A program made the position numbers and the translations under genes. Of a stretch of DNA of 64,000 nucleotides, positions 9,479 through 30,604 are shown in pieces. The DNA comes from an uncultured archaeon (lineage in GTDB: Archaea > Asgardarchaeota > Thorarchaeia > Thorarchaeales > Thorarchaeaceae): contig CAZYLT010000001.1 in assembly GCA_964648855.1 (NCBI GenBank), positions 342,299 to 406,298 of the forward strand, written 5' to 3'. How positions within the stretch are numbered: position 1 is the stretch's first letter; every line of letters starts with the position of its first letter. The notes under the pieces are model-generated. The model was not told the DNA's origin, ran no database searches, and saw nothing but the letters and a program-made list of their open reading frames with translations.

Positions 9479-9526
9479 TAGCAAGAGATATAGTTGCCAA
9501 TCGCACACATTCTTTTTGTGTCCACT

Positions 9527-10618
9527 ATGAAAGAGCGATGGCGATTACTTGATTTGGGCGCTATTGAACCGCTTGAAACACAAATTATCTATGATATGGT
9601 TGCTCAAGGGATTACAGAGGGAGAATCACAGAATACAATCATCATTTGCTGGCCCGCTGAGCCCTTAGTTAGTGTAGGCTATTTCCAAGAGATTGAGAAG
9701 GATATAGACCTTGCATTTTGCCGGAAAAACGATATTGTGGTGACACGCCGTGTAATCGGGGGTGGAGGAGTCTACCTAGATGATGGACAGCTATTCTACC
9801 AATTAATTGGGCGAGTTGATAGTCCAACTACGCCAAAGCCCATTGATGCCTATTATCGGAAATTTCTCAAAGCACCAGTTCAAGCATATAGGAATCTTGG
9901 CATTGAAGCTGAATTTCGACCAGTTAATGATATTCAGGTCAATGAAAAGAAAATATCAGGAAATGGAGCAGGAGATGTTGGTGATGCTCGCATTCTCACC
10001 GGCAACATAATTTTAGATTTTGACTTCGAAATGATGGTGAAGGTTCTTCGAGTACCAAGTGAGAAATTTCGGGATAAAGTATACAAGAGCCTCAAAGACC
10101 GGCTGTCAACAATTCTACTTGAAACTGGATCAATGCCACAAAAAGACGAGATTAAAACCGACCTAATCAGGCTTTACGAGGAAACCCTTGACATTGAACT
10201 TGAGAAGGGCAAGTTATCTTCATGGGAAAAGAGCAGGATGTCAGAGCTCCGCTCCAAATACAAGTCAAATGAGTGGCTTCACTGGAGGAGTGGAGGCAGA
10301 CTTGATGCTCGAACTGTTAGAATATCCGCAACAGCCTCTGTTGGTACAGCGAGCCATAAGGCCGAAGGCGGGTTGATTCGGGTGACTGCAGAGGAGATAG
10401 AAAATGAGATCAATGAAATTGTCATTAGTGGAGATTTCTTCATGCTTCCGTCCACAGCAATCGGAGAACTTGAGAACAACCTGAAGGGCTCTACTCTTTC
10501 TAGAGACGCGATACTGGAAAGAATTAAGGAAAGCTATACTCAGCTGGATATTGATTCGCCAGGAGTCAAGCCAGAAGATATTGCTGATGCGATTGAGTTG
10601 GCCTTCGAACAAAAGTAA
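9527..10618 (+). CDS. lplA: Lipoate-protein ligase A (second LplA-family paralog, catalytic plus C-terminal accessory domain)
   Basis: RRVIGGGGVYL and NEKKISGNGAG lysine motif. ~364 aa from the ATG at 9527; the track start at 9494 is TTG. Confidence 0.75.
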   Translation: MKERWRLLDLGAIEPLETQIIYDMVAQGITEGESQNTIIICWPAEPLVSVGYFQEIEKDIDLAFCRKNDIVVTRRVIGGGGVYLDDGQLFYQLIGRVDSPTTPKPIDAYYRKFLKAPVQAYRNLGIEAEFRPVNDIQVNEKKISGNGAGDVGDARILTGNIILDFDFEMMVKVLRVPSEKFRDKVYKSLKDRLSTILLETGSMPQKDEIKTDLIRLYEETLDIELEKGKLSSWEKSRMSELRSKYKSNEWLHWRSGGRLDARTVRISATASVGTASHKAEGGLIRVTAEEIENEINEIVISGDFFMLPSTAIGELENNLKGSTLSRDAILERIKESYTQLDIDSPGVKPEDIADAIELAFEQK

Positions 10619-10675
10619 AGCGAAGGACCAATGAGGAATTTAACAAATCGCGTAAAGCCTTGAGGTGAACCAATC

Positions 10676-11761
10676 ATGCCGTCGGATGTTAGCTTTTCTG
10701 CGATTGCGCCCGGAAGAGTCTGCATCTTTGGAGAACACAGTGACTACTTGGGACTAGATGTGATTCCCGCAGCAATTAGCATGCATATCGAGATTTCTTG
10801 TTCACCACGCGATGATCGTCTAATGGATATCAGATATTCGGATTTGGGAACAAAGGATACGTTCGAGATTGATACAAAAATCGATTATGCCCATGAGAGG
10901 GACTATGTTAGAAGTGCATTTAATGTACTTAGAAGGCAGGGACTTACTCTCTCTTCAGGATGGTCAATGTATGTTAGAGGAAACATACCAATTGCAGGAG
11001 GACTATCCAGCTCGTCAGCATTAGCTGTCGCATCAGTCCTGGCATATTCTAGAATGGCTGGAGAATCCCTGAATCCCAAAGCATTAGCCGAGCTTGCATT
11101 CCAGGCTGAGGTCAAGGAATTTGGAGAAAGCGGAGGTATGATGGATCATTATGCATCTGCGTACGGTGGAATCATACACTTGACTACAAAACCTAAGATA
11201 GAGGTGACCAGAATCCCTACATCCATTAGTGGGTTCGTCATTGGTGACTCGGGGGAGGAGAAGAAAGATACCGTGGGAGATCTGGAAGAAATCCGCAATT
11301 TGGCTGAGAAGGGATACAACAAACTAGCACAGTACGTAGACAATTTCGACCAAACCAAAACAGCCCTTGAGAAGGTTCAACCATTCCTGAAACGGCTTTC
11401 CTCAAGAGAGCAGACAGTGGTGGAAACGACCATCAAAAATAGGGACTTAACACAGCGTGCATATGATACTCTAAAGTCTAGTAACTACGAACCTGAAGAG
11501 TTAGGCTCAATGATTGATCAACATCATATCTATTTGCGTGATGGTCTGAAGCGATCGACCAAGAAAATAGAAAAGATGATACGAGCTGCAAAGAAAGCAG
11601 GAGCTTTGGGCTGCAAAATCAACGGAAGCGGTGGAGGAGGAACGATGCTAGCATATTGTCCAGGAAAGGTGGATGTTGTTTCATCAGCTATAGAGAGAGC
11701 AGGGGGGACACCATATGTGGTCAGTATTGGACAGGGCGCCCACCTGAGCGTCCAAGATTGA
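10676..11761 (+). CDS. GHMP-family sugar/small-molecule kinase (galactokinase-like signature)
   Basis: N-terminal APGRVCIFGEHSDYLG (galactokinase-type GRxNxxGEHxDY), GHMP ATP-binding loop PIAGGLSSSSALAVA, and a C-terminal GSGGGG. Confidence 0.7.
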   Translation: MPSDVSFSAIAPGRVCIFGEHSDYLGLDVIPAAISMHIEISCSPRDDRLMDIRYSDLGTKDTFEIDTKIDYAHERDYVRSAFNVLRRQGLTLSSGWSMYVRGNIPIAGGLSSSSALAVASVLAYSRMAGESLNPKALAELAFQAEVKEFGESGGMMDHYASAYGGIIHLTTKPKIEVTRIPTSISGFVIGDSGEEKKDTVGDLEEIRNLAEKGYNKLAQYVDNFDQTKTALEKVQPFLKRLSSREQTVVETTIKNRDLTQRAYDTLKSSNYEPEELGSMIDQHHIYLRDGLKRSTKKIEKMIRAAKKAGALGCKINGSGGGGTMLAYCPGKVDVVSSAIERAGGTPYVVSIGQGAHLSVQD

Positions 11762-16621: not shown

Positions 16622-17380
16622 TTAGCTTTCTTCAATCCTTATGGGCTGACCAACGGACAGTCGAAGCTCCTGAACAGCACTTGCATTCTTTGCGGCAATC
16701 TCGAGGGTATCGTAGCTGCCAGTGACCAAGAAGAGACCTTCGTCAGGGCCCTCGGAATACGTCGGATACCAATTCAGATCCCACTTCAAGTCAGAGGTTT
16801 CAATCCTGTATTCCTTGGCATTTGCATGGGGAATATTGGTGATGATGTTTCCAAATCTATCAATCCTCACTATCATGCCATCGCGGTCATGCAGAGGAAA
16901 CTCCAATTTCACACTTAATTCTGATTTGAATCCTCCAAGTACCTGACCTGCCTGACCACGACCCATATACCCTGCGGCTCTAGCAAATACATCTCGACCA
17001 TGAAACGTTCTTGACGCATTATCTTCAATTACTAGTGTGGAAACACTCTTTATTCCGTCCTGTTTTACCGCTGGATACATCAGACCATTATCAGGCCCAA
17101 TGAAAGAGTAATTCTTCGTTCTCACATAGATAGGGTCGCGTCCTGTTCCAACTCCCGGGTCAATTACACAGACAAAGATAGTATTCCGCGGAAACTGTGC
17201 GAAAGCCTGTAACAAGACCCAAGCACCCTCACAAATTGACTGCGGTCGAATCGAGTGTGTTAGGTCAACAATTCTAGAACTAGGACTCAAAGAGATGATG
17301 ACACCCTTCATTATCCCAACATATTCAGATTCTCCGAAGTCAGTCAAAAGCACAACAAGTGGAGGGTTCCTCATAGCCAT
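16622..17380 (-). CDS. S-adenosyl-L-methionine hydroxide adenosyltransferase family protein (DUF62 / SAM hydrolase, fluorinase-like fold)
   Basis: N-terminal LVVLLTDFGESEYVG and the DPGVGT region are characteristic of the DUF62 SAM-cleaving family. ~252 aa from the ATG at 17380; the track start is GTG. Confidence 0.7.
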   Translation of the reverse strand: MAMRNPPLVVLLTDFGESEYVGIMKGVIISLSPSSRIVDLTHSIRPQSICEGAWVLLQAFAQFPRNTIFVCVIDPGVGTGRDPIYVRTKNYSFIGPDNGLMYPAVKQDGIKSVSTLVIEDNASRTFHGRDVFARAAGYMGRGQAGQVLGGFKSELSVKLEFPLHDRDGMIVRIDRFGNIITNIPHANAKEYRIETSDLKWDLNWYPTYSEGPDEGLFLVTGSYDTLEIAAKNASAVQELRLSVGQPIRIEES

Positions 17381-17396: not shown

Positions 17397-18554
17397 CTAT
17401 TCGATTTTTACTAATCTTATTTCATTGTAATCTGTCAAGACACGAATATAGCCTCTCAACATTTCATCCACACTACTATCTCCGGTGTCAACCTTAAGTG
17501 TCCCACCCTCAATGCCCTTGAGCTTTGAAGGCGTGCTCATTACAATGATGTCATCTCGTTCGACTTTCTCAATTATTTTGGGACTGATTTGCTGATTACC
17601 CCTACCAAATAACATCCCTTGATGTCCTATGGGTGACACAATGATTTTGGTCTTGCTGAAGTCTTCCACCAAGTCTAGTATCTGGTCTTCATTGAGATCG
17701 TTATGAACCTCTCCGTCTTTGTACAGGTCGACCCCTAACGTTGTCTTTTCTATATCAAGTAGGTCTGCCACACTCTTTACGGTGGTTCCCGGACCGAGTA
17801 CATAGGTCCCATACTCATCCATGTTTTCAACAATGTATCGTGCAATTGCCTCCTGAGCTTCTCTCTCATCCACTGTTTCGGGGCTGGCTTGCTTGGCACC
17901 TTGAAAGCGTGCAGGAACTGATGGCCCTTTCATATAGCCGTAGAGCCGAATTTCCAGTTTATCATTCCGGAAGGCTTCTTCATCAATATCCATTATTTCG
18001 AATTCTGTTTCGCCCGTCTGCCCCTCCTCAATCAGACGAATGACCTCTGCAGCGTCGCGAGGATTCAGAACAAAAATAGCGCTATACATCTTGACGCCAG
18101 CTGGAATACCAATAACCAAGAGGTCCTCAAGACCATACTCTTTGATTGCATCTAAGATATCTCTGGCAGTACCGTCGCCACCAACAAAAGCAATTATCTC
18201 AACGCCTGCATCAGCCAATGCCTTCACGCATCGCTTAGTATCTTCAGCAGTGGTTTCATCGGAGATGTCCACGTCTATTGTTTCGAAGGGAATATTCTCA
18301 TTCTTGCATTCATTGCCCCCCATATCACCAGGACAGGCAGTCAAGGTGGGGTCATGTTTATTGTCATCGAAAAGGGGAGAAAGAGCATTGAGAAAGTCCT
18401 GTGCTCGGTTTGGAGACACCGGCTCTGCGCCCAATTCTCTTGCCGTATCTACGACTCCGTCTGTTCCCTTAAGACCAACACGACCGCCCATCCCAGCAAT
18501 AGGATTCACTATGAAACCAATGTGCAACAATGTCAATTCATCCCTATGTAACAT
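17397..18554 (-). CDS. ATP-NAD kinase-like / polyphosphate-or-ATP kinase family protein (COG3199-like)
   Basis: IVNPIAGMGG and the FVGGDGTARD GGDGT motif of the NAD-kinase/diacylglycerol-kinase fold. 385 aa with a C-terminal extension. It ends 8 nt from the SAM hydrolase gene, so they are probably an operon. Confidence 0.55.
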   Translation of the reverse strand: MLHRDELTLLHIGFIVNPIAGMGGRVGLKGTDGVVDTARELGAEPVSPNRAQDFLNALSPLFDDNKHDPTLTACPGDMGGNECKNENIPFETIDVDISDETTAEDTKRCVKALADAGVEIIAFVGGDGTARDILDAIKEYGLEDLLVIGIPAGVKMYSAIFVLNPRDAAEVIRLIEEGQTGETEFEIMDIDEEAFRNDKLEIRLYGYMKGPSVPARFQGAKQASPETVDEREAQEAIARYIVENMDEYGTYVLGPGTTVKSVADLLDIEKTTLGVDLYKDGEVHNDLNEDQILDLVEDFSKTKIIVSPIGHQGMLFGRGNQQISPKIIEKVERDDIIVMSTPSKLKGIEGGTLKVDTGDSSVDEMLRGYIRVLTDYNEIRLVKIE

Positions 18555-18864: not shown

Positions 18865-19989
18865 TTAGTAGTTAAAATCTATCATGAATTCAGATGAGAT
18901 TCTCCATGACTTTGATTTCTCGTCAAATGTTTCAGGCCATATTCCATAGACCTCAGTGTTCTCATAGTCAACCATAGAAACCATAAGGTCGGAGCTATTG
19001 CCATGAACGTACTCTAATACACGCGACATGTGAGAAGGTGGCAATCTCAGGTACCAGAACAAGAATTCATCCGCAATTTTCAGTGTTGACCTGAAGGGAA
19101 TAGGATTGGAAAGCATCTTCGCCTGTAGCTCCAAAGCAAATCTCTGTTCCACATTAGCGGTAAGAATCACATTGCTATAGAGATCAAATGCCTCTGGGTC
19201 TATGAAGACATGATATCCTTGTATGAAGTGATCCTGCAATAACTTTAGTCGACGAGAGAATTCCTGTGATGAGAATTCTATACCTCTTTTGGATAATTTG
19301 TCAATTATCGCCTTCTGCTTTCTTCGAGCTCCATGAACCAGGTCGCTGAGAATATACATATCGTTCTTGGAAAGCAAGTCCAGCCTTGGAACGCTTTGCC
19401 TAGGTTTCTTCACAGACGGAATCTCGATTGTGGATTCAATCCAAGAAGACCAATCAAAACCCCATGTGAAAGAATTGTTGTCCCAATGTTCTAATCGGGC
19501 TATACTAAAGATTGGCGCCGTGTTGGTAGTTGGCAGTATCCAAAAACTATCTAGGTGATTCTCATCGACCTTTGACTCAAGCAGAGTCCTTAGCTGATTC
19601 TGAGAGCCAAGCGGAATACGGAATTGTGCGAATAGTCCCGGAAAACCTCCATAGGATCGTGCACGATATTTCGTGTAGGGATGTGCATCACAGAGCTGCT
19701 CCAAATTCCTAATGGAATCGTAATTATCCGTCTTGAGGAATACCTCAACTGTATAGAGTGCTAAAGCTGCTTCATCAAATTCTGGCACAACTCTGAAGAA
19801 CTTCTTTGGAGAGTCATTTGATTTACCATCCAGCCACTTCAGGTATTTGGACACGGTCGAGCGAGAGAAATCTACTCGGTGAGACAAGTCCTTGGTTGTC
19901 TCTAATGGTCCTTCCTGTAGTGCCAGCAGCAGGCTCAAATGCTTACCTGTCAGTCTGAATGTCTCCAATAAATTACCCTCTGAAATCAA
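18865..19989 (-). CDS. Hypothetical protein with an N-terminal winged-helix DNA-binding domain and a possible second wH around residue 215
   Basis: LTGKHLSLLLALQEGPLETTKDLSHRVDFSRSTVSKYLKWL is HTH-like. The second helix-rich segment is MYILSDLVHGARRKQKAIIDKLSKRGIEFSSQEFSRRLKLL. No enzymatic motif. TTG start. Confidence 0.5.
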   Translation of the reverse strand: MISEGNLLETFRLTGKHLSLLLALQEGPLETTKDLSHRVDFSRSTVSKYLKWLDGKSNDSPKKFFRVVPEFDEAALALYTVEVFLKTDNYDSIRNLEQLCDAHPYTKYRARSYGGFPGLFAQFRIPLGSQNQLRTLLESKVDENHLDSFWILPTTNTAPIFSIARLEHWDNNSFTWGFDWSSWIESTIEIPSVKKPRQSVPRLDLLSKNDMYILSDLVHGARRKQKAIIDKLSKRGIEFSSQEFSRRLKLLQDHFIQGYHVFIDPEAFDLYSNVILTANVEQRFALELQAKMLSNPIPFRSTLKIADEFLFWYLRLPPSHMSRVLEYVHGNSSDLMVSMVDYENTEVYGIWPETFDEKSKSWRISSEFMIDFNY

Positions 19990-20012
19990 GATTCTCAGTT
20001 TGTGATTTCACA

Positions 20013-20483
20013 TTATAGCACAGTGACCGTGATATGCGGGTCGCCTGCTCCAGAACCGGTTGGTGGGTCGAAGTCATAGCTGTCTGTTGTATACCCATAG
20101 ACCGATCCGCCAAAAGCTAACGCATCAATCAAGACATTATACCAACCAGACTCCCACGCAGAATCAAACCAAGTCAGACGAATTCTGATTGAATCGAATT
20201 TGCCCACGAGTGTAACCATAGCCAATAACTCAGCGCCAGATGGCAGAGTAAGTGTGAAATAGAAGTCGGTCTTCTGTGGGCTCTTGTAGCCTTCAGTGAC
20301 TTCACAGAGATATTCTATTATTATGTCATCTTCTTGACCGTCGGCGTCAACATCGGCGTAGTATGCATTCTCTATAGTGACTTGGAATCTGGAACTGACA
20401 GCTGAAACCCCTTGAACCATTGATAGAAAAATCAATGGTAGCAATGCTAGTGCTAAGAGTCTTGCTTTGTTTCCATATTTCAT
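20013..20483 (-). CDS. Small secreted or exported protein of unknown function
   Basis: N-terminal signal peptide MKYGNKARLLALALLPLIFLSMVQGVSAVSS followed by a beta-rich ~125-aa domain. Directly downstream of the subtilase gene. Confidence 0.5.
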   Translation of the reverse strand: MKYGNKARLLALALLPLIFLSMVQGVSAVSSRFQVTIENAYYADVDADGQEDDIIIEYLCEVTEGYKSPQKTDFYFTLTLPSGAELLAMVTLVGKFDSIRIRLTWFDSAWESGWYNVLIDALAFGGSVYGYTTDSYDFDPPTGSGAGDPHITVTVL

Positions 20484-20559
20484 AGTTTGGGAAAATGTAA
20501 AGCGTCTTATATATGTCTTCGGAAATTAAAAAAAGAAGGGGGATGAGGGAGTTCCCTCA

Positions 20560-22563
20560 TCAAATTGTAAATGTTTCTGATGTTTCGACGTTGGCCGTGG
20601 CGTCGTAGGTATAACTACTATGAGCTACATTCGTGACGGTCACTGTATATGTGCCCTGGGGAGATCTCCCTAGGTCAAAAATGGCCACACCATTTGTTCC
20701 GGTGGTTGCAGTATAGGTACTGATGCTTCCGTCAGGATATTCCAAGTCTATGGTAACTTCCGCACCACTCACTGCATTTCCATTTGAGTCAACAACTGTA
20801 ATTTCAATTGTCAACCAAGCATGTGGACCTCGATAGGTCGCAGAGTACGAAATATCTGCAACATGCATGCTTCCGTCACTGCTTCCGCCATCATTACTTA
20901 CCGTAACTCCTACGCTATCTGAAGCAGTCTGACTGGCTGTGTCAGTGACTCGAGCGTTAATGGTATGGTCACCATCTGCTACACCTGTTGTGTCCCAGTC
21001 ATAGTAGTAATAACCATCCGAATCGACATTGTTAGTTATGTCAATCCAGTTCCCACCATCGATGTTCACTTCAACCGTGGAAACACCATTGTCGTCGCTG
21101 GCTGATACCTTGATCCTGTACGTACCACTCACTGTCTCTCCTTCTGTTGGAGCGTGAATTGATGCAGTTGGTGGGTTGTCAGTGGGTTCAGTTCCGCCAC
21201 CAGTAACATAGTCCAAGGCGTCCTTTGCTTGTGCTATGCCCCAGCCGTATGTGTTGTCTTCTCCTTCCTCACCCATATCCATGGCTGTTGTCTTAAGTAC
21301 CTCTTTGACATTGAAGGAAGTTAGACCAGAGTCGGCTTGTCGAAGTAGTGCGCCAATTCCGGCGGCCATGGGCGTAGCCATAGAGGTTCCGCTGTAAGTA
21401 ACATATCCGCTTCCACTATTGGCCTCGGCTGCAGTTATGGATGAACCGGCAGCACAAATTTCGGGTTTTATTCTTCCATCACCAGTCGGACCCTCATTGC
21501 TGAAGCTTGAGTGGGTTCCGTCATCATTGACAGATCCTACTGTAATTGCGTAGCGTGATGCCGATGGACATCCTATGGTGTTATACCCATACAGACGTTC
21601 AGGGTGACCGTGATTGCCTGCAGCAACAAAGAGAGCAATGTCGTTCTCCATTATGGAGTCTGCCATCAAACAAATCTCACCTGTACCATCGGATGAACTA
21701 GATGGGTTGGTTGATAGACTCATTGAGGCGATATTGATGTTGTAGGTTGTCCGGTAATCAATAATCCACTGCATGCCAGCAAGAACACCTTCAAGGGTTC
21801 CACCGCCGCCAGAGTCAAGGACCTTAACTCCGACTAGCTGAGCAGCATATGCAACTCCGCGATATCTGGAATCACCCTCTCCAGTCCCAGCAGCGATGCT
21901 TGAACAATGGGTTCCATGTCCATTATCATCGTATGCTACAACAGGAGTTGATAAGTCATCTTGACCGTTCACTACATCCTTGAAGGCGACGACTTTGTAG
22001 GTGTTGTATGGATCATCGTCATCCAGGTCAACATGGGTATTGTCGATTCCCGTGTCTAGGACAGCGATAACCATTCCTTCTCCGCGATAATCGTAGGATT
22101 GATATGCTTCAGGAACCTGCACAATGGGCAGTCCGCTATCAAGTGTTGCCTGTACCTCAATATTTGCATCAGATATTCTGATGACATCTTGTGAAGCACT
22201 GAGGTATTTCATGTTTCGTCGTGGGATATCTATCGATAGAGCCCCGATTGCGTCGTACCTGTATCTGACTTTTGCATCCAGCATGGGGAGCATATCTTCC
22301 AAGCTTGGAGAGGCAGTCACAATTACAGATACGCGTTCGTTTTGTTTCAGCTCTGCTAATTTTGGCTCAAATTCATCAACAATCTTGTTACCGTTCTGGT
22401 CCCAGCTATGGGTTACAATAGTGGTGCCCTTAGGTTGGGCTATAACTAGACCGGCAATCGCCACTGTCAAGAATAAGAACGCAAAGGAGCAAGCTAGATA
22501 CTTGTATCCGCGTTTTTTCAAATCTCTCACATCCAGAGGCCTTTCAAAATAGGCCTCAGGCAT
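20560..22563 (-). CDS. Secreted subtilisin-like serine protease (peptidase S8) with C-terminal Ig-like/beta-sandwich domains
   Basis: Catalytic triad motifs VIAVLDTGID (Asp), HGTHCSSIAAG (His) and GTSMATPMAAG (Ser). N-terminal signal/TM segment. The C-terminal ~230 aa are Thr/Ser/Gly-rich repeated beta strands. Track start GTG at 22584; ATG at 22563. Confidence 0.85.
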   Translation of the reverse strand: MPEAYFERPLDVRDLKKRGYKYLACSFAFLFLTVAIAGLVIAQPKGTTIVTHSWDQNGNKIVDEFEPKLAELKQNERVSVIVTASPSLEDMLPMLDAKVRYRYDAIGALSIDIPRRNMKYLSASQDVIRISDANIEVQATLDSGLPIVQVPEAYQSYDYRGEGMVIAVLDTGIDNTHVDLDDDDPYNTYKVVAFKDVVNGQDDLSTPVVAYDDNGHGTHCSSIAAGTGEGDSRYRGVAYAAQLVGVKVLDSGGGGTLEGVLAGMQWIIDYRTTYNINIASMSLSTNPSSSSDGTGEICLMADSIMENDIALFVAAGNHGHPERLYGYNTIGCPSASRYAITVGSVNDDGTHSSFSNEGPTGDGRIKPEICAAGSSITAAEANSGSGYVTYSGTSMATPMAAGIGALLRQADSGLTSFNVKEVLKTTAMDMGEEGEDNTYGWGIAQAKDALDYVTGGGTEPTDNPPTASIHAPTEGETVSGTYRIKVSASDDNGVSTVEVNIDGGNWIDITNNVDSDGYYYYDWDTTGVADGDHTINARVTDTASQTASDSVGVTVSNDGGSSDGSMHVADISYSATYRGPHAWLTIEITVVDSNGNAVSGAEVTIDLEYPDGSISTYTATTGTNGVAIFDLGRSPQGTYTVTVTNVAHSSYTYDATANVETSETFTI

Positions 22564-22708
22564 AGTGTTTGGGAAAATGTACACTAGCTTATAAGTATAT
22601 CTAGAAATTTCCCGCTTTGACTGTCATGGACGAAAATGCTAGACGGAATAACACATCACCTTCGTACTGGTCGAACATAACATCAAAATCACAGAAACTC
22701 ACATCTAC

Positions 22709-23299
22709 TCAGGTAGGCAGATGCAGAGCACCCACATCAGACGCGGATTGAATCCAAAAACAGACTCGAACAAGTACTTCCTCAAGAAAGCGAGGCCGGT
22801 CACTTGGCTTGGCATCCTTCGGCCACCGATTACGTCTGTACTCGTCGAACTTCTGGAATGTTCGCCCGTATTTGGTGGTCATCGGTATCTCGACGTAGCG
22901 ATCACATACTGTCGTGAGGGCACGGATAAGAGGCGCATATTCAAACTTGATCCGTAATAACCACTTCGTGATGGCACGGAAGAATGCGCGGTCATCGGTG
23001 CCTTCCCACGGAATATCCATCATCCCTTCGCGATCTTCACCACGAACCCTCTGGCTGTTGAAGTCGCAGTCGCTGCTGTGAGTGCAACGAGCTCTCACAA
23101 ACACCTTTTTGTCGGTAAACCACAGAACTACTCTATGGTCCCCCTTTTTCTGAAGAAGCTCTTTATGGTCGCCGGCAGGAAAGATCAACTCTATCGTTCC
23201 CGGGTCTTTGAATTTGAAATCCTTCTTGAAGTATAATTGCATGGCCCAGGTGATAGGAGGGATAGTATTTACTGGATAGAGCTCGCTTCGGTCAGTCAT
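22709..23299 (-). CDS. Hypothetical protein (196 aa), co-oriented and immediately downstream of the Rab-like GTPase
   Basis: ATG start, no recognisable motifs. Cys/His-containing segment RARCTHSSDCDFNSQ. 110-bp spacer to the GTPase gene. Confidence 0.5.
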   Translation of the reverse strand: MTDRSELYPVNTIPPITWAMQLYFKKDFKFKDPGTIELIFPAGDHKELLQKKGDHRVVLWFTDKKVFVRARCTHSSDCDFNSQRVRGEDREGMMDIPWEGTDDRAFFRAITKWLLRIKFEYAPLIRALTTVCDRYVEIPMTTKYGRTFQKFDEYRRNRWPKDAKPSDRPRFLEEVLVRVCFWIQSASDVGALHLPT

Positions 23300-23408
23300 G
23301 TCTACTCAGCTGGCTGTTTCTTAATGGATAATAGGATAGAATCCAGTGGTCTTGCTAATCTAAGTCTTGTCCTCCATGAATTGGACCATGAGATAGAACA
23401 CAGCGAAA

Positions 23409-23951
23409 TTATTCGCTTGAGCGTCTAGTACTAACGAGTGTCTTTCCAAGATTCTCGAAGATGTCAACGATACCCTCGCCCGTCTTTGCAGATGACTCCA
23501 CGTAGGGCATGCCGTGTGCATCAGCGAATTCCCTGCCCTCCTTTGGCTCAACCACACGGTCAGGCAAGTCCGTCTTGTTTGCAACTAGCACCAAGGGAAT
23601 CTTTTTCTTAATCGCCTTTTCCAATTCATTGAGCCACTCATCAAGCAGAAGGAATGTTCGGCGTCGGGTGACATCGAATACGAGCACGCCGCCGCTTGAA
23701 CCTCTATAGTACATTGGTCTCAAAATCTGAAAGCGGCTCTGCCCCGCCACGTCCCAGATTTGCAGCTTCACAGTCAGGTTTTCACGGCTCTCACGTATAT
23801 CGATATTCTTGACAGCGAACTGAGAGCCTATCGTTGTCTTGTAATCGGTACGGAAGAAGCCATGAGAGAAGCGAGTGACGATTGCAGTTTTTCCTACTGC
23901 ACCCTCTCCGAGAATGACCACTTTAAACAGGTAATCGTACGTACTGCTCAT
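23409..23951 (-). CDS. Small GTPase of the Ras superfamily (Rab/Arf-like, eukaryote-type)
   Basis: G1 GEGAVGKT, G2 YKTTIGSQF (switch I Thr), G3 WDVAGQSRF (DxxGQ), G4 VANKTDL (NKxD) and G5 ESSAKTGEG (SAK). ~180 aa from the ATG at 23951. Confidence 0.85.
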   Translation of the reverse strand: MSSTYDYLFKVVILGEGAVGKTAIVTRFSHGFFRTDYKTTIGSQFAVKNIDIRESRENLTVKLQIWDVAGQSRFQILRPMYYRGSSGGVLVFDVTRRRTFLLLDEWLNELEKAIKKKIPLVLVANKTDLPDRVVEPKEGREFADAHGMPYVESSAKTGEGIVDIFENLGKTLVSTRRSSE

Positions 23952-23996
23952 CAGATTCAATTCCGACTCTTGTTTTGAGTGAAACGGTTGGGCTCA

Positions 23997-24012
23997 ACCT
24001 AACGCGTTAGGT
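23997..24012. promoter_or_regulatory. Perfect 16-bp palindrome ACCTAACGCGTTAGGT upstream of the GTPase gene
   Basis: Seen directly in sequence. It lies in the 113-bp spacer between the hydrolase stop and the GTPase start, about 45 nt upstream of ATG 23951. Confidence 0.25.
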
Positions 24013-24073
24013 GCGCAGGCATCTAATAAGGTTTCGTTAGACCTAGAACTCTGCTATTGTATTAGCGATCCCA

Positions 24074-24916
24074 CTACTTCTTTTTCTCAAGAATTACCTC
24101 TGTGTCTTTCAGTCGTTGGCGGTCGAGGTCACCCTGAGCCCACTTCATAAATTTCTTGAGTAACCGATTGAAATTTTCTGGCTGCTGAACCATGGGGGAA
24201 TGGTCGGCATTTCTTATGACTGCGATATCAGCTCGGGGAAGGGATTTCTCGAGCTCCCAAGCAACATTTGGGGGGATAATGTCATCATCATCTCCAACAA
24301 TGACCAAGGCAGGCATTTTGATTTCATCAAGTCTGTCAGAGATATTGAAGTCATCACAAACGTCCAAATCGCGGAAAATGCTCTTGGCGTTGAATTTTGT
24401 CACCGTCTCTTGAAACTTGTTGAGAGAAAAAGTCTTGAAGTCTACATCGAGCGCTTCGGTTTCATAGGGTGGACTGTGGTCTTCAAATGCTTCAATGATG
24501 AGGCCTTTCACCAGTTTTCGAAGATTTAGGTCGGAAGAGGTGCCCACTAACACAATGGCATACGGAAGAGACACATCATGGCGTAGACAATATGCCATGA
24601 CAATACCTCCACCCATTGAGTGTCCAATAAGGGCGAAGTCATCTATCTCAAGGTGGTCTATCAGGGCGGCGACCTGGTCGGTGAATCCGTTTTCTATGGA
24701 GGGAGGCTTTGCAAACCTGTCACTCAGCCCATGACCGGACATGTCCAAGGCAATCACACGGTAGTCTTCCTTGAGTTTCAGTAACTGCAAGCTCCAAATC
24801 AGATGAGAAGAGCCAGCTCCATGTATGAAGATCAAGACGGGAGTATCCTTCTGTTCATGCCGATCATCAAAATCGACATAATGGAGTCTGCAACCTCGGA
24901 ACTCAAAATATGGCAT
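24074..24916 (-). CDS. Alpha/beta-fold hydrolase (esterase/lipase/peroxidase-like)
   Basis: Nucleophile elbow GHSMGGG, HGAGSS oxyanion region, and C-terminal Asp/His (NADHSPM). 280 aa. Confidence 0.75.
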   Translation of the reverse strand: MPYFEFRGCRLHYVDFDDRHEQKDTPVLIFIHGAGSSHLIWSLQLLKLKEDYRVIALDMSGHGLSDRFAKPPSIENGFTDQVAALIDHLEIDDFALIGHSMGGGIVMAYCLRHDVSLPYAIVLVGTSSDLNLRKLVKGLIIEAFEDHSPPYETEALDVDFKTFSLNKFQETVTKFNAKSIFRDLDVCDDFNISDRLDEIKMPALVIVGDDDDIIPPNVAWELEKSLPRADIAVIRNADHSPMVQQPENFNRLLKKFMKWAQGDLDRQRLKDTEVILEKKK

Positions 24917-25042
24917 GTGATGACCTCGTGTCTTTTCCCATAGAATACGAGCACTGCATATATTCGTTCTCTGGATAGTTGGCTGGGCTCATCGTCAGTT
25001 ACCTTTTTCTTTCAGTGGCGAGATGAAGGGCATGTGAAAAGA

Positions 25043-26422
25043 ATGGCAGAAAAATTGTTTGGAACAACGGGTATACGGAAAATATACGGCTCCGAATTCA
25101 CCCTAGATATGGCAATGAAGTTGGGGAGAGCACTAGGCACATATCTCCAAACAGGAAGAATACTCATTGCAAGGGACACCCGAACAACAGGGAAAATGGT
25201 TGTCGATGCATTCGTATCAGGGGTACTCTCAACGGGCATCGATGTGACCCGGCTGGGTATAGTTCCAACACCGACATTGGCATACCTGACCAGAAAAAGG
25301 GTATTTGATGCGGGCGTGATGGTAACCGCGTCCCATAACCCCCCAGAATATACAGGCATAAAATTTTGGCATAAGGATAGCATGGGATACACTTCAGAGA
25401 TGGAGAGAGAAATCGAGAGGCTCTACCAATCACAAGAATTTCAGGTAGCACCGTGGAACGAGCTGGGTCAAGAAGCTGTCTTGGAGGATGCAGTAGAGGA
25501 ACATATCTCTGACATCATCGACCACTGTGATAGTGAAGCCATCAGTCGCCAAGAGTTCAAGGTCATTGTCGATCCCGGAAATGGAGCAGCATGTGTCTTG
25601 ACTCCGTATCTTATGCGGAAACTAGGTTGTAAGGTTATCACAATCAATGGGCAGCCAGATGGGCATTTTCCTGGAAGAAGGTCTGAACCAGAAGAGGAAA
25701 CTCTACAAGACCTCATTCATATGGTGAAAAAGCAGGGAGCGGATCTGGGAATCGCTCATGATGGAGATTCCGATCGAGGAGTATTTGTGACTGAAACAGG
25801 AGAAGTCGTAAGAGGAGACAGAACCATTGCCCTACTTGCAAAGACACTCTTGAAGAATGCCAAAACGGGCGTAGTTGTAACCACAGTGGATAGTTCAAAG
25901 GTTCTCGACGAAACGGTTCAGAGGGCTGGCGGGGATATTGTTCGGACACCAGTTGGCGACATCCAGGTTGCAGTCAAGCTAAAGGAGCTTGAAGGTATTA
26001 TGGGAGGAGAAGCCTGTGGAGTGTTCATATTTCCTTCATTTCACATTGCACCAGAGCCTTTCCTGGCTGCTTGCAAGATACTGGAGATGATGGCTCACGT
26101 CGGAAAAAGCTTTGGCGAGCTGGTTTCTGAGATTCCGGTATACCCGTTATTGAAAACAAAGCTTGAGGTGGCGAATAATAGGAAGGAACCGGTCATGAAG
26201 GAACTCTCAAAGATGTTACCAAAAAAGATAGATGGAATTCAAGATGTGATTACGGTAGATGGCATCGGATTAGTCCTAGATGATGGGTGGATTCTTGTAA
26301 GACCATCAGGAACGGAACCGGTCATAAGGATAACTTGCGAAGCATCAACTGACGACCGAGCTCACGAAGTACTGGACTCATGTAAGCGAGTTGTAAAGAA
26401 GACAATCTCTTCCCAGAAATAA
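25043..26422 (+). CDS. Phosphohexomutase family enzyme (archaeal phosphoglucosamine / phosphomannomutase / phosphoglucomutase)
   Basis: GTTGIRK N-terminus, active-site TASHNP, and the DGDSDR metal-binding loop. ~459 aa from the ATG at 25043; the track start is GTG. Confidence 0.8.
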   Translation: MAEKLFGTTGIRKIYGSEFTLDMAMKLGRALGTYLQTGRILIARDTRTTGKMVVDAFVSGVLSTGIDVTRLGIVPTPTLAYLTRKRVFDAGVMVTASHNPPEYTGIKFWHKDSMGYTSEMEREIERLYQSQEFQVAPWNELGQEAVLEDAVEEHISDIIDHCDSEAISRQEFKVIVDPGNGAACVLTPYLMRKLGCKVITINGQPDGHFPGRRSEPEEETLQDLIHMVKKQGADLGIAHDGDSDRGVFVTETGEVVRGDRTIALLAKTLLKNAKTGVVVTTVDSSKVLDETVQRAGGDIVRTPVGDIQVAVKLKELEGIMGGEACGVFIFPSFHIAPEPFLAACKILEMMAHVGKSFGELVSEIPVYPLLKTKLEVANNRKEPVMKELSKMLPKKIDGIQDVITVDGIGLVLDDGWILVRPSGTEPVIRITCEASTDDRAHEVLDSCKRVVKKTISSQK

Positions 26423-26505: not shown

Positions 26506-26937
26506 ATGGCTGAAGACGATGACGATTTCATCATGGAGGAATTTGAATGGGCCCTAAAGGACCCAACAGAAGAAAAGCTACGTCAACTCGGTGAAGTAGT
26601 CAGCATCATAACAGGAAAAATTGTTGATGCCATAGGTCAACTTGAAAACCGTATTAGTTCGTTAGAAGAAAATGTCAGTAACATGAGTTCTCGCATATCA
26701 TCTCTAAGCTCGAGAGCGAGCAGTGCTAGTGCAGAACCCGCTGCGGAAGCAGTAGAATCCACACCCAGTCCACCAACATCGCCAAGCGTTGGTGGTGCCC
26801 CAGAACCAGCATCAGCCAGTGCAGGAGGCGGAGGGCCACCTGGAGGCGGAGGTGGTGGAATGACAATGATGGGGGAGCTCAAAGCATTGTTGGCGGCGAG
26901 AAGAAAGAAAGTAGAAGGCGGAGAAAAACAGGCTTAG
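26506..26937 (+). CDS. Small acidic coiled-coil protein with a Ser/Pro/Gly-rich linker and a C-terminal basic amphipathic helix (function unknown)
   Basis: 143 aa. The N-terminal ~75 aa form a heptad-like helix. Then SSRISSLSSRASSASAEPAAEAVESTPSPPTSPSVGGAPEPASASAGGGGPPGGGGGG, then MTMMGELKALLAARRKKVEGGEKQA. TATA-like TTTATAG lies ~45 nt upstream. Confidence 0.5.
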   Translation: MAEDDDDFIMEEFEWALKDPTEEKLRQLGEVVSIITGKIVDAIGQLENRISSLEENVSNMSSRISSLSSRASSASAEPAAEAVESTPSPPTSPSVGGAPEPASASAGGGGPPGGGGGGMTMMGELKALLAARRKKVEGGEKQA

Positions 26938-27596
26938 GTCAATAATTTACGACTGTTCTTTTTGTAGAAAGGGCCTGCGTGGCGGGGCATAGAAACAGTG
27001 AACGCCTCTGCGCGCGAACAAGCGCCTTGGACGCCTCTCAGTTTTGTTCGAGCATCATAGAAAGTCAAGTAGAAGCCTTCAGCTTTTGAAATCTGAGATT
27101 CGTGTTTCTTCAGTGCCAATAAGCTCTCATCGTAGGACGTGGTGATATCCACTATAAAGTGAGGATGTGAATGGAGAGTGTTGATTTCCATCTGTAGCAT
27201 GCGATCCACTCTATGAGGTTCTTCGAACATTGTCTTGTGCGATGCCCATTCGATAGATTCCATAACAAGCTCCGCACAGATTCTGTGGTTACGATTGTAG
27301 TCCTCGCTAGAGTGCGTGATTATGATATCGGGACGGGACTGGAGGATAACCTCAATTACTGAGTCGGAAAGACTTCTATCGATTTCAAAGTCCCCTCGAT
27401 TGGAAGGGTATATCTTTCTGACACCCAATATGTCACAAGCATTTGCAAGCTCCTCATTTCGTTTGTCATTTCCGGTTAAGCAAAGGACATCTACTGGAAT
27501 GTCCGCCTTGGTATGATTTCTGATTGTCCCTCCAGCACCAAGACATTCGTCATCGGGATGTGCGGTAATCACAAGAATAGAATCCAAATCTGCCAT
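26934..27596 (-). CDS. bshB: PIG-L / LmbE-family N-acetylglucosaminyl deacetylase (BshB/MshB-like)
   Basis: LVITAHPDDECLGAGG is the AHPDDE zinc-binding motif. ~220 aa from ATG ~27596. The track TTG at 27626 would overlap the divergent neighbour. Confidence 0.75.
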   Translation of the reverse strand: MADLDSILVITAHPDDECLGAGGTIRNHTKADIPVDVLCLTGNDKRNEELANACDILGVRKIYPSNRGDFEIDRSLSDSVIEVILQSRPDIIITHSSEDYNRNHRICAELVMESIEWASHKTMFEEPHRVDRMLQMEINTLHSHPHFIVDITTSYDESLLALKKHESQISKAEGFYLTFYDARTKLRGVQGACSRAEAFTVSMPRHAGPFYKKNSRKLLT

Positions 27597-27710
27597 ACAG
27601 GTTACTCGGAGATGGTCACTAATCAAGTTTTACCAATGCTTCAGGGGTATATTCCCGCACCAAGCACCTTAAAGGTAGGTAGTCTTGATACGATACAAGA
27701 GTTGACAAGG

Positions 27711-28874
27711 GTGAAAATTGGAGTCAATCTATATCCTTCAGTCGGTGGTTCAGGATATCTTGCCACTCGACTAGGCCAGCATCTAGTTGAGAGAGGACAC
27801 ATAATCCATTTCATAACATATCAAAGACCTTTCTCATTAGTGTGGGAAGATACGCGAGGAGCATTTGTGGACCTAGTTGACACTATCGACTATCCATTAT
27901 TCAAGGACATCTGCCCGCCCTATTCAATGGCGCTAGCTTCGAAGATTGTCCAAGTTTCTCAAAACTCCCAACTGGATTTGATTCATTCACACTATGCCAT
28001 CCCACATGCACTATCTGCATACATGGCAAGAGAAATTGTGGGGATACCTTATGTCATTACGATGCATGGCTCAGATGTACACTCGTTAGGTCTGGACCCA
28101 GCATATCAACCAGTAGTAAAACACACAGTTCAACAAGCAAGTGCGGTCACCACGGTAGCGGCCTTTCTCCGAGATAGTGCTTACGAAAAGTTAGGTATTG
28201 ATAGAGAAATTCATGTTATTCCAAATTTCATTGATGTTGAGAAGTACAAACGGAAAGAGGGTATACGACTTGTAGTTGAAAGCGGTTGTGTATCGGTGAG
28301 AACAGAGGAGGATGCCGAGGCCATCAACCCAGATCAGAGAGTCCTACTCCATGTTTCAAACTTCAGGAAAGTCAAGCGAGTCGTTGAACTGATAGAAATA
28401 ATGAAAATGGTAGTGGATGAGAAGCCAGATACCCGGCTTGTTCTCGTAGGAGATGGACCAAAGAGAGTAGAGGTTGAGCGTAAGATAGAGGAGCTAGATC
28501 TTTGCCAAAAGGTACACCTTCTAGGAATCAGAAGCAATGTACATGAAATCATGTGTTCATCTGATATGCTCTTGATGAATTCCTTGCAGGAAGGGATGCC
28601 ACTTGTTATCCTAGAGGCCATGGCATCGCAATTACCTGTTGTTACGACACCAGCTGGTGGAATACCGGAATTAGTAAGACCCGGAAAGGATGGGTGGGTA
28701 ACTGAAGGTTATGAAAAGGAAGAATTTGCTCATGCGATTCTAACCCTTCTTGATGATGACGCAAAACTGAAGAAATTTGGACATACTGGATGGAAGAGAG
28801 TCAAGGAGAAATTCTCAGCAGACATAATTGTACCAAAATATGAACAGGTCTTCCAAGAAGCAGTTCAAAAATAG
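27711..28874 (+). CDS. bshA: GT4-family retaining glycosyltransferase resembling BshA/MshA (N-acetyl-alpha-D-glucosaminyl L-malate synthase-like). A PIG-A-like GlcNAc transferase is the alternative reading.
   Basis: N-terminus VKIGVNLYPSVGGSGYLATRLGQHLVERGHIIHFITYQRPFSL closely resembles the BshA start (KIGITCYPSVGGSG...HFIT) as I recall it. C-terminal EX7E motif EGMPLVILEAMASQLPVVTTPAGGIPE. The GTG at 27711 gives a BshA-like N-terminus; in-frame ATGs further upstream (27636, 27513) would overlap the divergent deacetylase gene. Confidence 0.75.
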   Translation: MKIGVNLYPSVGGSGYLATRLGQHLVERGHIIHFITYQRPFSLVWEDTRGAFVDLVDTIDYPLFKDICPPYSMALASKIVQVSQNSQLDLIHSHYAIPHALSAYMAREIVGIPYVITMHGSDVHSLGLDPAYQPVVKHTVQQASAVTTVAAFLRDSAYEKLGIDREIHVIPNFIDVEKYKRKEGIRLVVESGCVSVRTEEDAEAINPDQRVLLHVSNFRKVKRVVELIEIMKMVVDEKPDTRLVLVGDGPKRVEVERKIEELDLCQKVHLLGIRSNVHEIMCSSDMLLMNSLQEGMPLVILEAMASQLPVVTTPAGGIPELVRPGKDGWVTEGYEKEEFAHAILTLLDDDAKLKKFGHTGWKRVKEKFSADIIVPKYEQVFQEAVQK

Positions 28875-28885
28875 GAGAGTATTGA

Positions 28886-30604
28886 GTGACCAAGAGAAGC
28901 ATTACACAGGCATACTTGGACTATATTTGGAAGTCCAAACACGAGGAGTTGGCATCTGAACTCTACAACGACCCACCTATTTTGATGAACGACTTGAGAA
29001 AGCGCGCAGTCAATTTGAGAAAGACGTATGCTGAGCAAGACTGGCATACAGATGATAGGACTGAGAGATTGCAGAGGGCGTTGACAAGGATTAACCGTGA
29101 GCTAGGTTGTCTAAGTCCGAAAGTCAAGAAAAGCATTGAGAAACTACATGAGGGCGCTGTTGAGGCAGCTCATCAAAGCGTTGTATTAGGCGGCCCTTGC
29201 TATATTCTGAACAAGGCCATCACAGCAGAAAGATTGGCGGTCCTGAACTCGACCGAGCAGACATCTCTTGTCCCATTTTATTGTATTGCTGATTATGATA
29301 TAGTTCAGAGTGAGTTGACCCATACGAGAACGCCCTTGATGGGACCAAGTGGAAATATAGTGAGCATACCGGTTCCTGATGAATACGAGTTCTCACCTGT
29401 GAGTGTTGTGCCTTTACCCGAATATCATTGGTATGAGGAAGCGGAGGAGAGTATTAGAACGGGGTATAGCCCATTGTTCAAAGTACTTGAAGGAAATACA
29501 CGAAAGCTCTTTGACGAAAGGCTTGAATATGCACTTTCCATAACCAGACAAGCATTTCTTAACTCCGAAACTCTGGGGGAATGGGCACAAAGGATTATTG
29601 CAAGGATTGTGAACATTGAAGGAAACCTAGGACTACCTCTAGTTCCAGCTTCTGACGATGAGATACGAAAACTATGGGCGCTTGGCATGGAATTTCTTCT
29701 CTCCAAAGAGATACGAGAGAATTTCGTTCAGATGTACGGTCAAGCCACGAAAAGAATTCAGAATAACGGGTTTGAGCCAGGTGCAGGAGGAAGGGATAGC
29801 GCGTATGTCCCATTCTTCTATGAATGCCAAACAGAATCATGTAATCGGGCTAGAACAGAGCTGTTCTATGAATTGGATGGGTCGAAAGCATTACTCAGAG
29901 GAGAATGTCCTCTTTGCAACGAAAAAATCCAATTAGAAGTCGATGCGGAAACTCCAGATCTATCAGACCAAGCTACGTTTCTATCACCCAGAGTTGATTC
30001 TCGACAATTTGCAGTCGATTCCTCGATCCCTATCATAGCTCATGCGGGAGGGCCGGGAGAGACTGCGTATTATGCGCAAGTCATACCGATTGCAAGAAAA
30101 TTGAAGATACCATTTCCTATGTTTGTGAAATACCCTCGTGTCTTTTTCAATACCCCATGGAGCGAAGATATGGCTAACCAGCTAAAGACAAGCGAGATTC
30201 CCGTGCTTCACAGAGGTGAGATGTTTCGGGCCATGGGACAAGTTACTCGAAATAGAAACAAAGAGAACTATGACGAGATGAATGGGGCAATCCAGGATCT
30301 TGCAGGAATCATTTGGACGACACATGATGAGCTGTTAGAATCTTTGCATAAACTTGAGAAGGAGATTGAGGAAACCGAGGAGCATGTAGAGGAAGACAGA
30401 CTAGAGCTGAAATTCAAAATTGAAACCTATCTGTCTTGGGCATATGGTCGGTATGCAAAGGGAAAGAATGCACAGGAGTCATCTTGGTCATGGATTGAAT
30501 GGGTACTAAATGCGGGACTTGGTGATTTATTTGGACCGTACGAGCGGGCCTATATGCAACAAATGAAGAATGGAGCAACGCTTTTTGTAAATTTCATGGT
30601 ATGA
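28886..30604 (+). CDS. Large conserved protein, candidate BshC-like enzyme (third gene of a bacillithiol-type pathway), with an internal Cys4 zinc-ribbon
   Basis: 572 aa with a GTG start 12 nt after the bshA-like stop. Segments SVVLGGPCYIL, VPFYCIADYD and IIAHAGGPGETAYYAQV resemble conserved blocks of BshC (YllA) as I recall them (VVGGQQAGLLTGP / IPIFWVAGEDHD / IAGPGE). The memory-based match is uncertain. Zinc-ribbon is CQTESC ... CPLC. The C-terminal ~130 aa are coiled-coil-like. Confidence 0.45.
   Translation: MTKRSITQAYLDYIWKSKHEELASELYNDPPILMNDLRKRAVNLRKTYAEQDWHTDDRTERLQRALTRINRELGCLSPKVKKSIEKLHEGAVEAAHQSVVLGGPCYILNKAITAERLAVLNSTEQTSLVPFYCIADYDIVQSELTHTRTPLMGPSGNIVSIPVPDEYEFSPVSVVPLPEYHWYEEAEESIRTGYSPLFKVLEGNTRKLFDERLEYALSITRQAFLNSETLGEWAQRIIARIVNIEGNLGLPLVPASDDEIRKLWALGMEFLLSKEIRENFVQMYGQATKRIQNNGFEPGAGGRDSAYVPFFYECQTESCNRARTELFYELDGSKALLRGECPLCNEKIQLEVDAETPDLSDQATFLSPRVDSRQFAVDSSIPIIAHAGGPGETAYYAQVIPIARKLKIPFPMFVKYPRVFFNTPWSEDMANQLKTSEIPVLHRGEMFRAMGQVTRNRNKENYDEMNGAIQDLAGIIWTTHDELLESLHKLEKEIEETEEHVEEDRLELKFKIETYLSWAYGRYAKGKNAQESSWSWIEWVLNAGLGDLFGPYERAYMQQMKNGATLFVNFMV

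Follow-up and report, generated by a model that had tools for sequence, protein, structure and literature searches.

Across the Thorarchaeota, the gene of a strongly conserved Rab-like small GTPase is followed by a gene for a protein of about 196 residues that is found in essentially no other organisms. We describe this pair in a 64,000-nt stretch of the genome of an uncultured member of the Thorarchaeaceae (contig CAZYLT010000001.1, positions 342,299 to 406,298; hereafter the window), where both genes lie on the minus strand and the second, which we call p196, begins 109 nt 3' of the GTPase stop codon. The GTPase is a bona fide Rab-type, eukaryote-like small GTPase of an Asgard (Thorarchaeota) archaeon. 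p196 is an orphan confined to this clade, its predicted fold matches no solved structure, and the two genes are direct neighbors in 57 of 59 loci. The reading we favor, at a probability of roughly 0.4, is that p196 is a lineage-specific, dedicated physical partner of the GTPase, either an effector or adaptor or a regulator of the GTPase-activating protein (GAP) type, encoded next to it under its own promoter. A literature search found no description of the pair.

23409..23951, minus strand: Rab-like small GTPase of 180 aa, with a Pfam Ras match (1e-48), G-boxes G1-G5 and Rab-family motifs
22709..23299, minus strand: p196, an open reading frame of 196 aa without domain match, co-oriented with the GTPase

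Conserved adjacency of the GTPase and p196 genes

How constant is this arrangement? A scan of one genome per species (GTDB) yielded 67 p196 loci, nearly all labelled Thorarchaeota. Their neighbors were found by tblastn of the window proteins against these loci, 59 of which extend far enough upstream for the GTPase to be looked for. An ortholog of the Rab lies directly upstream of p196, and co-oriented with it, in 57 of these 59, at a distance of 18-132 nt. Two look-ups seeded with the Rab instead, one of them in a genome labelled Sifarchaeia, found a gene of 193-197 aa without Pfam match immediately downstream. p196 thus displays the conserved adjacency expected of a cognate GTPase partner, and the surrounding block is syntenic as well. 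The first-pass annotation of the window, made from the sequence alone, had named the absence of the 196-aa gene beside orthologous GTPases as grounds for giving up the pair; at the species level, presence is the rule. The two exceptions, L034 and L048, each carry an insertion of 1.27 kb.

The pair belongs to a longer collinear block with the order PGM, hydrolase, Rab, p196, NADK-like, SAM-HAT, and a BshC-like/GT4/PIG-L cluster upstream of it recurs too. The remaining members of the block in the window are:

25034..26422, plus strand: phosphoglucomutase/phosphomannomutase (PGM) with PGM_PMM domains I-IV, the upstream end of the conserved block
24074..24916, minus strand: alpha/beta hydrolase (Pfam Abhydrolase_1, 1.9e-25), the usual upstream neighbor of the GTPase
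17400..18527, minus strand: NAD-kinase/DAG-kinase-like protein (NADK-like) of 376 aa, with the N- and C-terminal Pfam NAD_kinase domains and DAGK_cat
16631..17359, minus strand: SAM hydroxide adenosyltransferase (SAM-HAT, DUF62; Pfam SAM_HAT_N, 3.7e-48, and SAM_HAT_C), the last gene of the conserved block

PGM is divergent from the hydrolase and has a median identity of 63% across loci. Downstream of p196, the same 376-aa NADK-like gene was found in 58 loci, and SAM-HAT follows it in 42. The junctions between the genes are kept to different degrees:

PGM and hydrolase: adjacent in 47 of 50 loci
hydrolase and Rab: adjacent in about 32 of the 50 loci that have the hydrolase
Rab and p196: adjacent in 57 of 59 loci
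p196 and NADK-like: adjacent (gap of at most 250 nt) in 52 of 63 loci

In a region with clear insertions the Rab-p196 junction is therefore the most stable, if not uniquely so. The window has such an insertion itself: 4.1 kb of lineage-specific sequence part p196 from the NADK-like and SAM-HAT genes, both of which are still present. Synteny suggests a functional link of p196 with the Rab, without proving one.

An unusually constrained Rab-like GTPase

The GTPase carries all five G-boxes in order, G1 GEGAVGKT (residues 15-22), G2 YKTTIG (37-42), which contains the switch I threonine, G3 DVAGQ (67-71), G4 NKTD (125-128) and G5 SAK (154-156), and so belongs to the Ras superfamily. It scores 165 bits against Pfam Ras (cut-off 21.6) and 95.8 bits against TIGR00231 small_GTP. 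Is it also a Rab? The Rab-type motifs IGSQF, KLQIW, RFQIL, YYRG and LVFDVT are all found; the RabF motif definitions used for this call are reportedly those of Pereira-Leal and Seabra from the year 2000. The top matches among PDB structures are Rabs without exception, led by 7EZB, 'Thorarchaeota Rab' (1.6e-53), with Rab18, Rab1 and Ypt1 next (about 1e-40), and the NCBI name of the orthologs is 'Rab family GTPase'. These results bear out the first-pass annotation, which had described a eukaryote-like GTPase of the Rab type with five G-boxes. The prenylatable cysteines at the C-terminus of Rabs are lacking. The protein, which ends in ...TLVSTRRSSE, contains no cysteine at all and consequently no prenylation (geranylgeranylation) site, and for this reason we call it Rab-like rather than a canonical membrane-anchored Rab. 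Its ATG at 23951 is the start used by public gene calls and in the orthologs. A longer form beginning with a TTG at 23960, given by the ORF finder, was rejected, as it has no support from the orthologs.

Over 61 species-level loci the Rab orthologs are 75-93% identical, with a median of 83% to the window protein, compared to 63-65% for the adjacent housekeeping enzymes. Switch I, interswitch and switch II are essentially invariant across the class. The 120 best database matches listed for the Rab are all 80-100% identical to it. A few loci bear Hermod-, Hod-, Sif- or 'Promethearchaeota' labels; these appear to reflect labelling differences or mis-binning, because the sequences and their flanks closely match Thorarchaeota loci. 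The GTPase is the most strongly conserved Rab paralog of the class Thorarchaeia: a known kind of protein, but an unusually constrained one.

p196 is an orphan protein of the Thorarchaeota

The p196 family comprises 101 clusters of about 193-197 aa, essentially all from Thorarchaeota and usually with one member per genome. No cluster carries a Pfam domain, and 'hypothetical protein' is the sole name in use. Aligned, 49 members show a mean column identity of 62% and 26 invariant positions. Given the constant length of the 101 clusters and these invariant positions, p196 is a real gene under purifying selection. Residues H45, H55, C72, C78, R84, R90, W98, R155, W159, R178 and W182 never vary at the aligned positions of the 67 genome loci, and the His2Cys2 pattern among them suggests a metal site. 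The protein is soluble and basic, with an isoelectric point (pI) of 9.2 (8.2-9.75 in the family) and no hydrophobic segment. Its AlphaFold model is confident, with a predicted local distance difference test (pLDDT) score of 93.5, and has an alpha+beta fold for which neither PDB nor BFVD holds a structural match.

Sequence searches yielded no relatives either. A profile hidden Markov model of p196, run against 1.84 billion representative proteins, retrieved only the family itself and fragments of it, and against PDB sequences it gave nothing at E<=10. No match was obtained with Pfam for any of the 49 members (E<=1), nor with NCBIfam, PHROGs or PADLOC, and the description of the downstream co-oriented protein as devoid of recognizable domains therefore stands. 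The known Rab GAP, guanine nucleotide exchange factor (GEF) and chaperone families (TBC, DENN, Vps9, Sec2, TRAPP, Mss4 and GDI) show no sequence similarity to p196, and their solved structures do not match it. A viral or defense origin was rejected, since PHROG and PADLOC matches are absent and 2.9 million viral contigs (IMG/VR) contain no relative. One database entry, P0109 (266 aa), joins an unrelated N-terminal part of 217 residues to the last 49 residues of p196. We rejected it as a natural domain fusion, as it is probably a chimera of assembly or frameshift. Metagenome-assembled genome FT5_021 has two different p196 copies on two contigs (L016 and L059), which points to a mixed bin rather than a genuine duplication.

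Probable promoters of the two genes

Is the pair an operon, as the first-pass annotation had assumed when it called p196 co-transcribed? Promoters were assigned by motif conservation and standard archaeal promoter geometry.

24023..24037, minus strand: predicted promoter of the GTPase gene, a block of 15 nt, ACGAAACCTTATTAG, of the transcription factor B recognition element (BRE)/TATA type, recognized by motif conservation
23402..23417, minus strand: short hairpin AGCGAATAATTTCGCT overlapping the GTPase stop codon, a possible terminator-like element from a scan for such structures
23326..23333, minus strand: TATA-like element TATTATCC, 26 nt upstream of the p196 ATG, a degenerate version of the family-wide ATATCA(G)

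The BRE/TATA block ACGAAACCTTATTAG is unique in the window. CTTATTAG occurs upstream of the Rab ortholog in 44 of the 59 loci (0.1 expected by shuffling), at 59-130 nt from the start codon, and the 14-nt sequence GAAA[CG]CTTATTAG is present in 38. Most orthologs also have a Shine-Dalgarno (SD)-like GGAGG or GGTGA about 8 nt before the ATG. We infer that the Rab gene has a dedicated promoter and a 5' untranslated region (5'UTR) of about 50 nt with an SD-like element. The block is nearly identical in most Thorarchaeota (L003-L069), though the proteins are only 55-65% identical, and its conservation exceeds what a generic BRE/TATA element needs. A semi-conserved T[AT][AT]CGC, probably an initiator-like element, follows about 14-15 nt further downstream.

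The spacer between the two genes carries a promoter-like motif of its own. ATATCA is present in 37 of 59 Rab-to-p196 spacers, with 2.0 expected by shuffling, and lies, with a single outlier, 26-29 nt before the p196 ATG; CGAAT or CTAAT often precedes it. This position would fit a TATA box that drives a leaderless or near-leaderless p196 mRNA, with a predicted transcription start 0-6 nt ahead of the ATG. Runs of TTTT within 35 nt of the Rab stop codon were found at 22 of 59 loci, against 9.1 +/- 2.6 in shuffled sequences; the window itself has no such run after the Rab stop. Gaps between Rab and p196 are typically 51-122 nt. An operon would have no internal promoter or terminator and a short or overlapping spacer, which is not what these loci show. 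Because the ATATCA motif keeps an almost fixed distance to the start codon, T-runs are more frequent than expected behind the Rab stop codon and a gene of the opposite strand stands between the two in two genomes, p196 is most probably transcribed from its own promoter. Co-transcription by read-through may occur but is not what is conserved, and on this point we depart from the first-pass annotation.

A palindrome at the probable GTPase promoter

23997..24012, no strand assigned: perfect 16-nt palindrome ACCTAACGCGTTAGGT, 45 nt from the GTPase ATG, beginning 11 nt downstream of the TATA block

The first-pass annotation had noted this palindrome and suggested control by a dimeric transcription factor; in that reading, ACCTAACGCGTTAGGT would be the operator of a Rab-p196 operon. 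The palindrome is indeed perfect and stands where it was said to stand. It spans the predicted transcription start (about 24001-24006), and this site, 11 nt downstream of the TATA block, would be a typical position for an archaeal repressor. An operator for a dimeric factor should, however, occur above chance, be conserved and have further copies, and ACCTAACGCGTTAGGT does none of this. Perfect 16-nt palindromes number one in the window and average 1.03 in random sequences of equal length drawn from a first-order Markov model. No second copy exists in the window, even with 3 mismatches allowed. Among orthologous promoters, 57 lack the palindrome; the single one that has it, in the closest relative (L003), carries a mismatch at one position. 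The operon that it would control is itself at odds with the promoter-like motif of p196. We therefore hold this reading to be highly improbable and the operator essentially refuted. Only the left half of the palindrome (TAACGC) fits the semi-conserved T[AT][AT]CGC, in the same register as in other species, and we regard the palindrome as a chance extension of that conserved promoter-proximal element, neither an operator nor a sequence with a conserved role.

A role at the RNA level was likewise set aside. With the predicted transcription start inside the palindrome and only the left half semi-conserved, a hairpin in the Rab 5'UTR is unlikely. A structured RNA at the locus was rejected, since Rfam had no match anywhere in the window and folding revealed no hairpin conserved across orthologs downstream of the TATA block.

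Is p196 a partner of the GTPase?

Small GTPase genes of Asgard archaea are generally unlinked to recognizable regulator genes, which makes cognate GAPs and GEFs hard to predict (PMC10933270), and a neighbor conserved across a class is for that reason an unusual lead. The invariant switch regions of the Rab are as expected for conserved partner surfaces, and the lineage of the window has kept p196 with the Rab although 4.1 kb were inserted before the NADK-like gene. We infer a physical interaction of the two proteins, together with the promoter assignments and the metal site, as elements of the following model. p196 would recognize the invariant switch I/II surface of the Rab in a nucleotide-dependent manner. 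His45, His55, Cys72 and Cys78 would make up a site in the beta-sheet lobe that is structural and may bind zinc, and the loop with Arg84 and Arg90 is a candidate contact or 'finger' element. The p196 mRNA would be essentially leaderless and made from its own promoter, so that Rab and p196 would be co-located and not obligatorily co-transcribed.

Several observations weigh against a dedicated partnership. The gene that separates Rab and p196 in L034 and L048 encodes, on the opposite strand, a 256-aa winged-helix regulator with an ArsR-like N-terminus. The divergent PGM-hydrolase junction is nearly as stable as that of the pair (47 of 50 loci). Gene order is shared throughout the class over about 12 kb, and the adjacency may simply have been inherited with it. 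The p196 stop codon touches or overlaps the start of the NADK-like gene in about 10 genomes (at most 25 nt), closer than p196 ever comes to the Rab. Since the collinear block is longer than the pair, and since p196 is nearly as tightly linked to NADK-like, adjacency alone is not enough to mark the GTPase as the partner of p196. A mirror-tree comparison of 42 genomes, controlled for PGM and NADK-like, gave a partial correlation of 0.14 between Rab and p196 (permutation p 0.06), the Rab being too conserved for much power; the value for Rab and NADK-like is the same (0.15), and the signal is not specific to the pair. Among the known folds of GAPs, GEFs and effectors (Roadblock, longin, TBC, DENN, Mss4), none resembles that of p196. 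Finally, the best 120 matches listed for the Rab are all at least 80% identical, and do not establish that it is restricted to Thorarchaeota as p196 is. Of the proposal in the first-pass annotation that p196 is a candidate effector or regulator, the conserved adjacency thus holds up, and the wider block, the linkage to NADK-like (52 of 63 loci) and the unspecific mirror-tree signal take away from it.

Could p196 then be functionally unconnected to the GTPase, the adjacency being nothing but inherited gene order? It would have an independent role, in which the invariant His/His/Cys/Cys and Arg residues would serve, for example, a metal-dependent enzyme, a nucleic-acid-binding protein or a basic protein of another kind. 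This is rather unlikely in our estimate. On its side, the collinear block, from BshC-like, GT4 and PIG-L through PGM, hydrolase, Rab, p196 and NADK-like to SAM-HAT, recurs in distant Thorarchaeota, each gene has its own promoter-like motif, a specific co-evolution signal of Rab and p196 is lacking, and the basic pI of 8.2-9.75 and invariant H/H/C/C would suit an independent function. It does not readily explain why the Rab-p196 junction is the least broken (2 of 59) when its neighbors are broken in 11 of 63 and about 18 of 50 loci; insertions are free in the region and rarely tolerated between these two genes. Nor was an enzyme or nucleic-acid-binding fold detected in p196. The close approach of p196 to the NADK-like gene raises another idea, namely that p196 works with this NADK/DAG-kinase-like protein, and possibly SAM-HAT, for instance as a regulatory or substrate-presenting subunit, and that the Rab is a mere neighbor. 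NADK-like directly follows p196 in 52 of 63 loci, about 10 of them operon-like with at most 25 nt or an overlap, and the partial distance correlation of p196 with NADK-like (0.28) exceeds that of Rab with p196 (0.14). That of p196 with PGM is higher still (0.44), however, so these correlations mostly reflect a shared rate. Moreover, p196 is limited to Thorarchaeota but NADK-like proteins occur widely, at most loci the NADK-like gene is preceded by a conserved BRE/TATA-like motif and an SD of its own, and the junction is broken in 11 lineages including that of the window, with its 4.1 kb inserted. We judge a kinase partnership improbable.

We thus return to p196 as a dedicated partner of the Rab, for which the comparative evidence is suggestive, not decisive. 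Asgard genomes are rich in genes for Rab-, Arf- and Rag-like GTPases. To our knowledge, hardly any of them has been assigned a partner or a cellular role, and Rab-p196 is a concrete, testable pair. Rab-like GTPases of Asgard archaea, and the crystallized Thorarchaeota paralog, were known before; new is the clade-wide, structurally unprecedented neighbor. More speculatively, p196 may be the founder of a new kind of Rab regulator or effector without structural precedent, which arose in the ancestor of the Thorarchaeia, binds the central Rab-like GTPase of the class and possibly links it to the adjacent NADK/lipid-kinase-like enzyme, a proposal that we put forward with considerable reserve. If correct, p196 would be the first protein assigned to an archaeal Rab-like GTPase as its cognate partner, and would imply that Asgard GTPase circuits are built from parts unrelated to the eukaryotic repertoire of GAPs, GEFs and effectors. 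An interaction of Rab and p196 would reveal a new Rab-binding fold and offer a foothold on the role of the pre-eukaryotic Rab. If the two do not interact, p196 is still a clade-defining protein of novel fold with an invariant His2Cys2/Arg2 signature.

Other features of the region

The 4.1-kb insertion of the window contains three open reading frames (18865..22584):

20560..22584, minus strand: secreted S8 subtilase with Big_7/Big_1 domains
20013..20483: 156-aa protein with an N-terminal signal-like segment
18865..19989: open reading frame of 374 aa

The insertion is common to L001-L003, and an S8 gene is found elsewhere 0.8-2.2 kb downstream of p196 (L037, L055, L069). At the parted Rab-p196 junction of L048 the regulator gene occupies 8753..9523 on the minus strand, and an open reading frame of 101 aa follows on the Rab strand. 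The spacer between p196 and NADK-like varies as well. It measures at most 25 nt, or the genes overlap, in L018, L020, L023, L025, L026, L038, L052, L063, L064 and L070, and this abutting arrangement in one subclade suggests translational coupling. In one subclade (L048, about 10583..10830; L033, L034, L036, L050, L067) some 245 nt between the two genes are conserved, with the sequence GAGGGAATCCC...GAGGGACTCCCCCC...CACGAATTCCC...GCATTTAAACTATA. Rfam gave no match to this element at E<=1; it may be a gene for a small RNA or a conserved non-coding element of another type. The NADK-like kinase also weakly matches lipid kinases of the YegS type (E about 1e-3).

Beyond PGM, a trio of genes occupies 26934..30604 of the window, preceded by a gene for a small protein:

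26506..26937, plus strand: 143-aa protein between PGM and PIG-L, with an acidic, coiled-coil-like N-terminal half and a low-complexity C-terminal half rich in Ser, Ala, Pro and Gly
26934..27626, minus strand: PIG-L deacetylase
about 27513..28874, plus strand: GT4 glycosyltransferase
28886..30604, plus strand: Rossmann-like BshC

PIG-L, GT4 and BshC correspond to BshB, BshA and BshC, the set that makes low-molecular-weight thiols of the bacillithiol type, and the trio is also found upstream of the Rab block in the distant Thorarchaeota genome L072. The 143-aa protein has no Pfam match, and counterparts of 132-143 aa stand at the same position in L001, L002 and L072.

Comparison with known systems

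The closest characterized relative of the GTPase is Thor-Rab (7EZB/7EZD/7EZE; KXH73347.1) of Thorarchaeota SMTZ1-45, from the same class of organisms, which is about 57% identical to it over 169 residues. Both have the same G-boxes and Rab-type switch motifs and no C-terminal prenylation extension. Thor-Rab is a paralog: the 7EZB gene lies on contig LRSL01000056, and the SMTZ1-45 ortholog of the window GTPase (L028), which is 81% identical and has p196 downstream, on LRSL01000054. In the structure paper, Thor-Rab is likewise described as devoid of a prenylation site, and no conserved partner gene is reported for it (Tran et al. 2024, PMC10933270).

Eukaryotic Rabs (Rab1/Ypt1, Rab18, Rab11) match the window GTPase at about 1e-40 to 1e-35 with about 45% identity, and share with it the G3 box DxxGQ and the RabF-type motifs KLQIW, YYRG and LV[FY]D[VI]T. 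Unlike them, the archaeal protein has no cysteine, and no partner of the TBC, DENN, Vps9, longin or GDI type is evident nearby.

What kind of partner might p196 be? In Mss4/Dss4 and the zinc-finger Rab effectors (rabphilin, EEA1), small proteins that bind Rabs, zinc stabilizes the module that makes the contact, and we take them as leads only. p196 has its invariant His2Cys2 set, but no sequence or structural similarity to them, and its metal binding is putative. The genetic arrangement has parallels. MglA-MglB is a prokaryotic Ras-like GTPase with an adjacent GAP of the Roadblock fold. Unlike the Roadblock/LC7 or longin partners of GTPases, p196 matches neither of these folds. As in MglA-MglB pairs and the Rag-like GTPase/Roadblock/longin combinations of Asgard archaea, however, a small GTPase gene is joined at the Rab-p196 locus by the gene of a small soluble protein, in an order conserved across the lineage, and these systems offer an analogy for how p196 may act.

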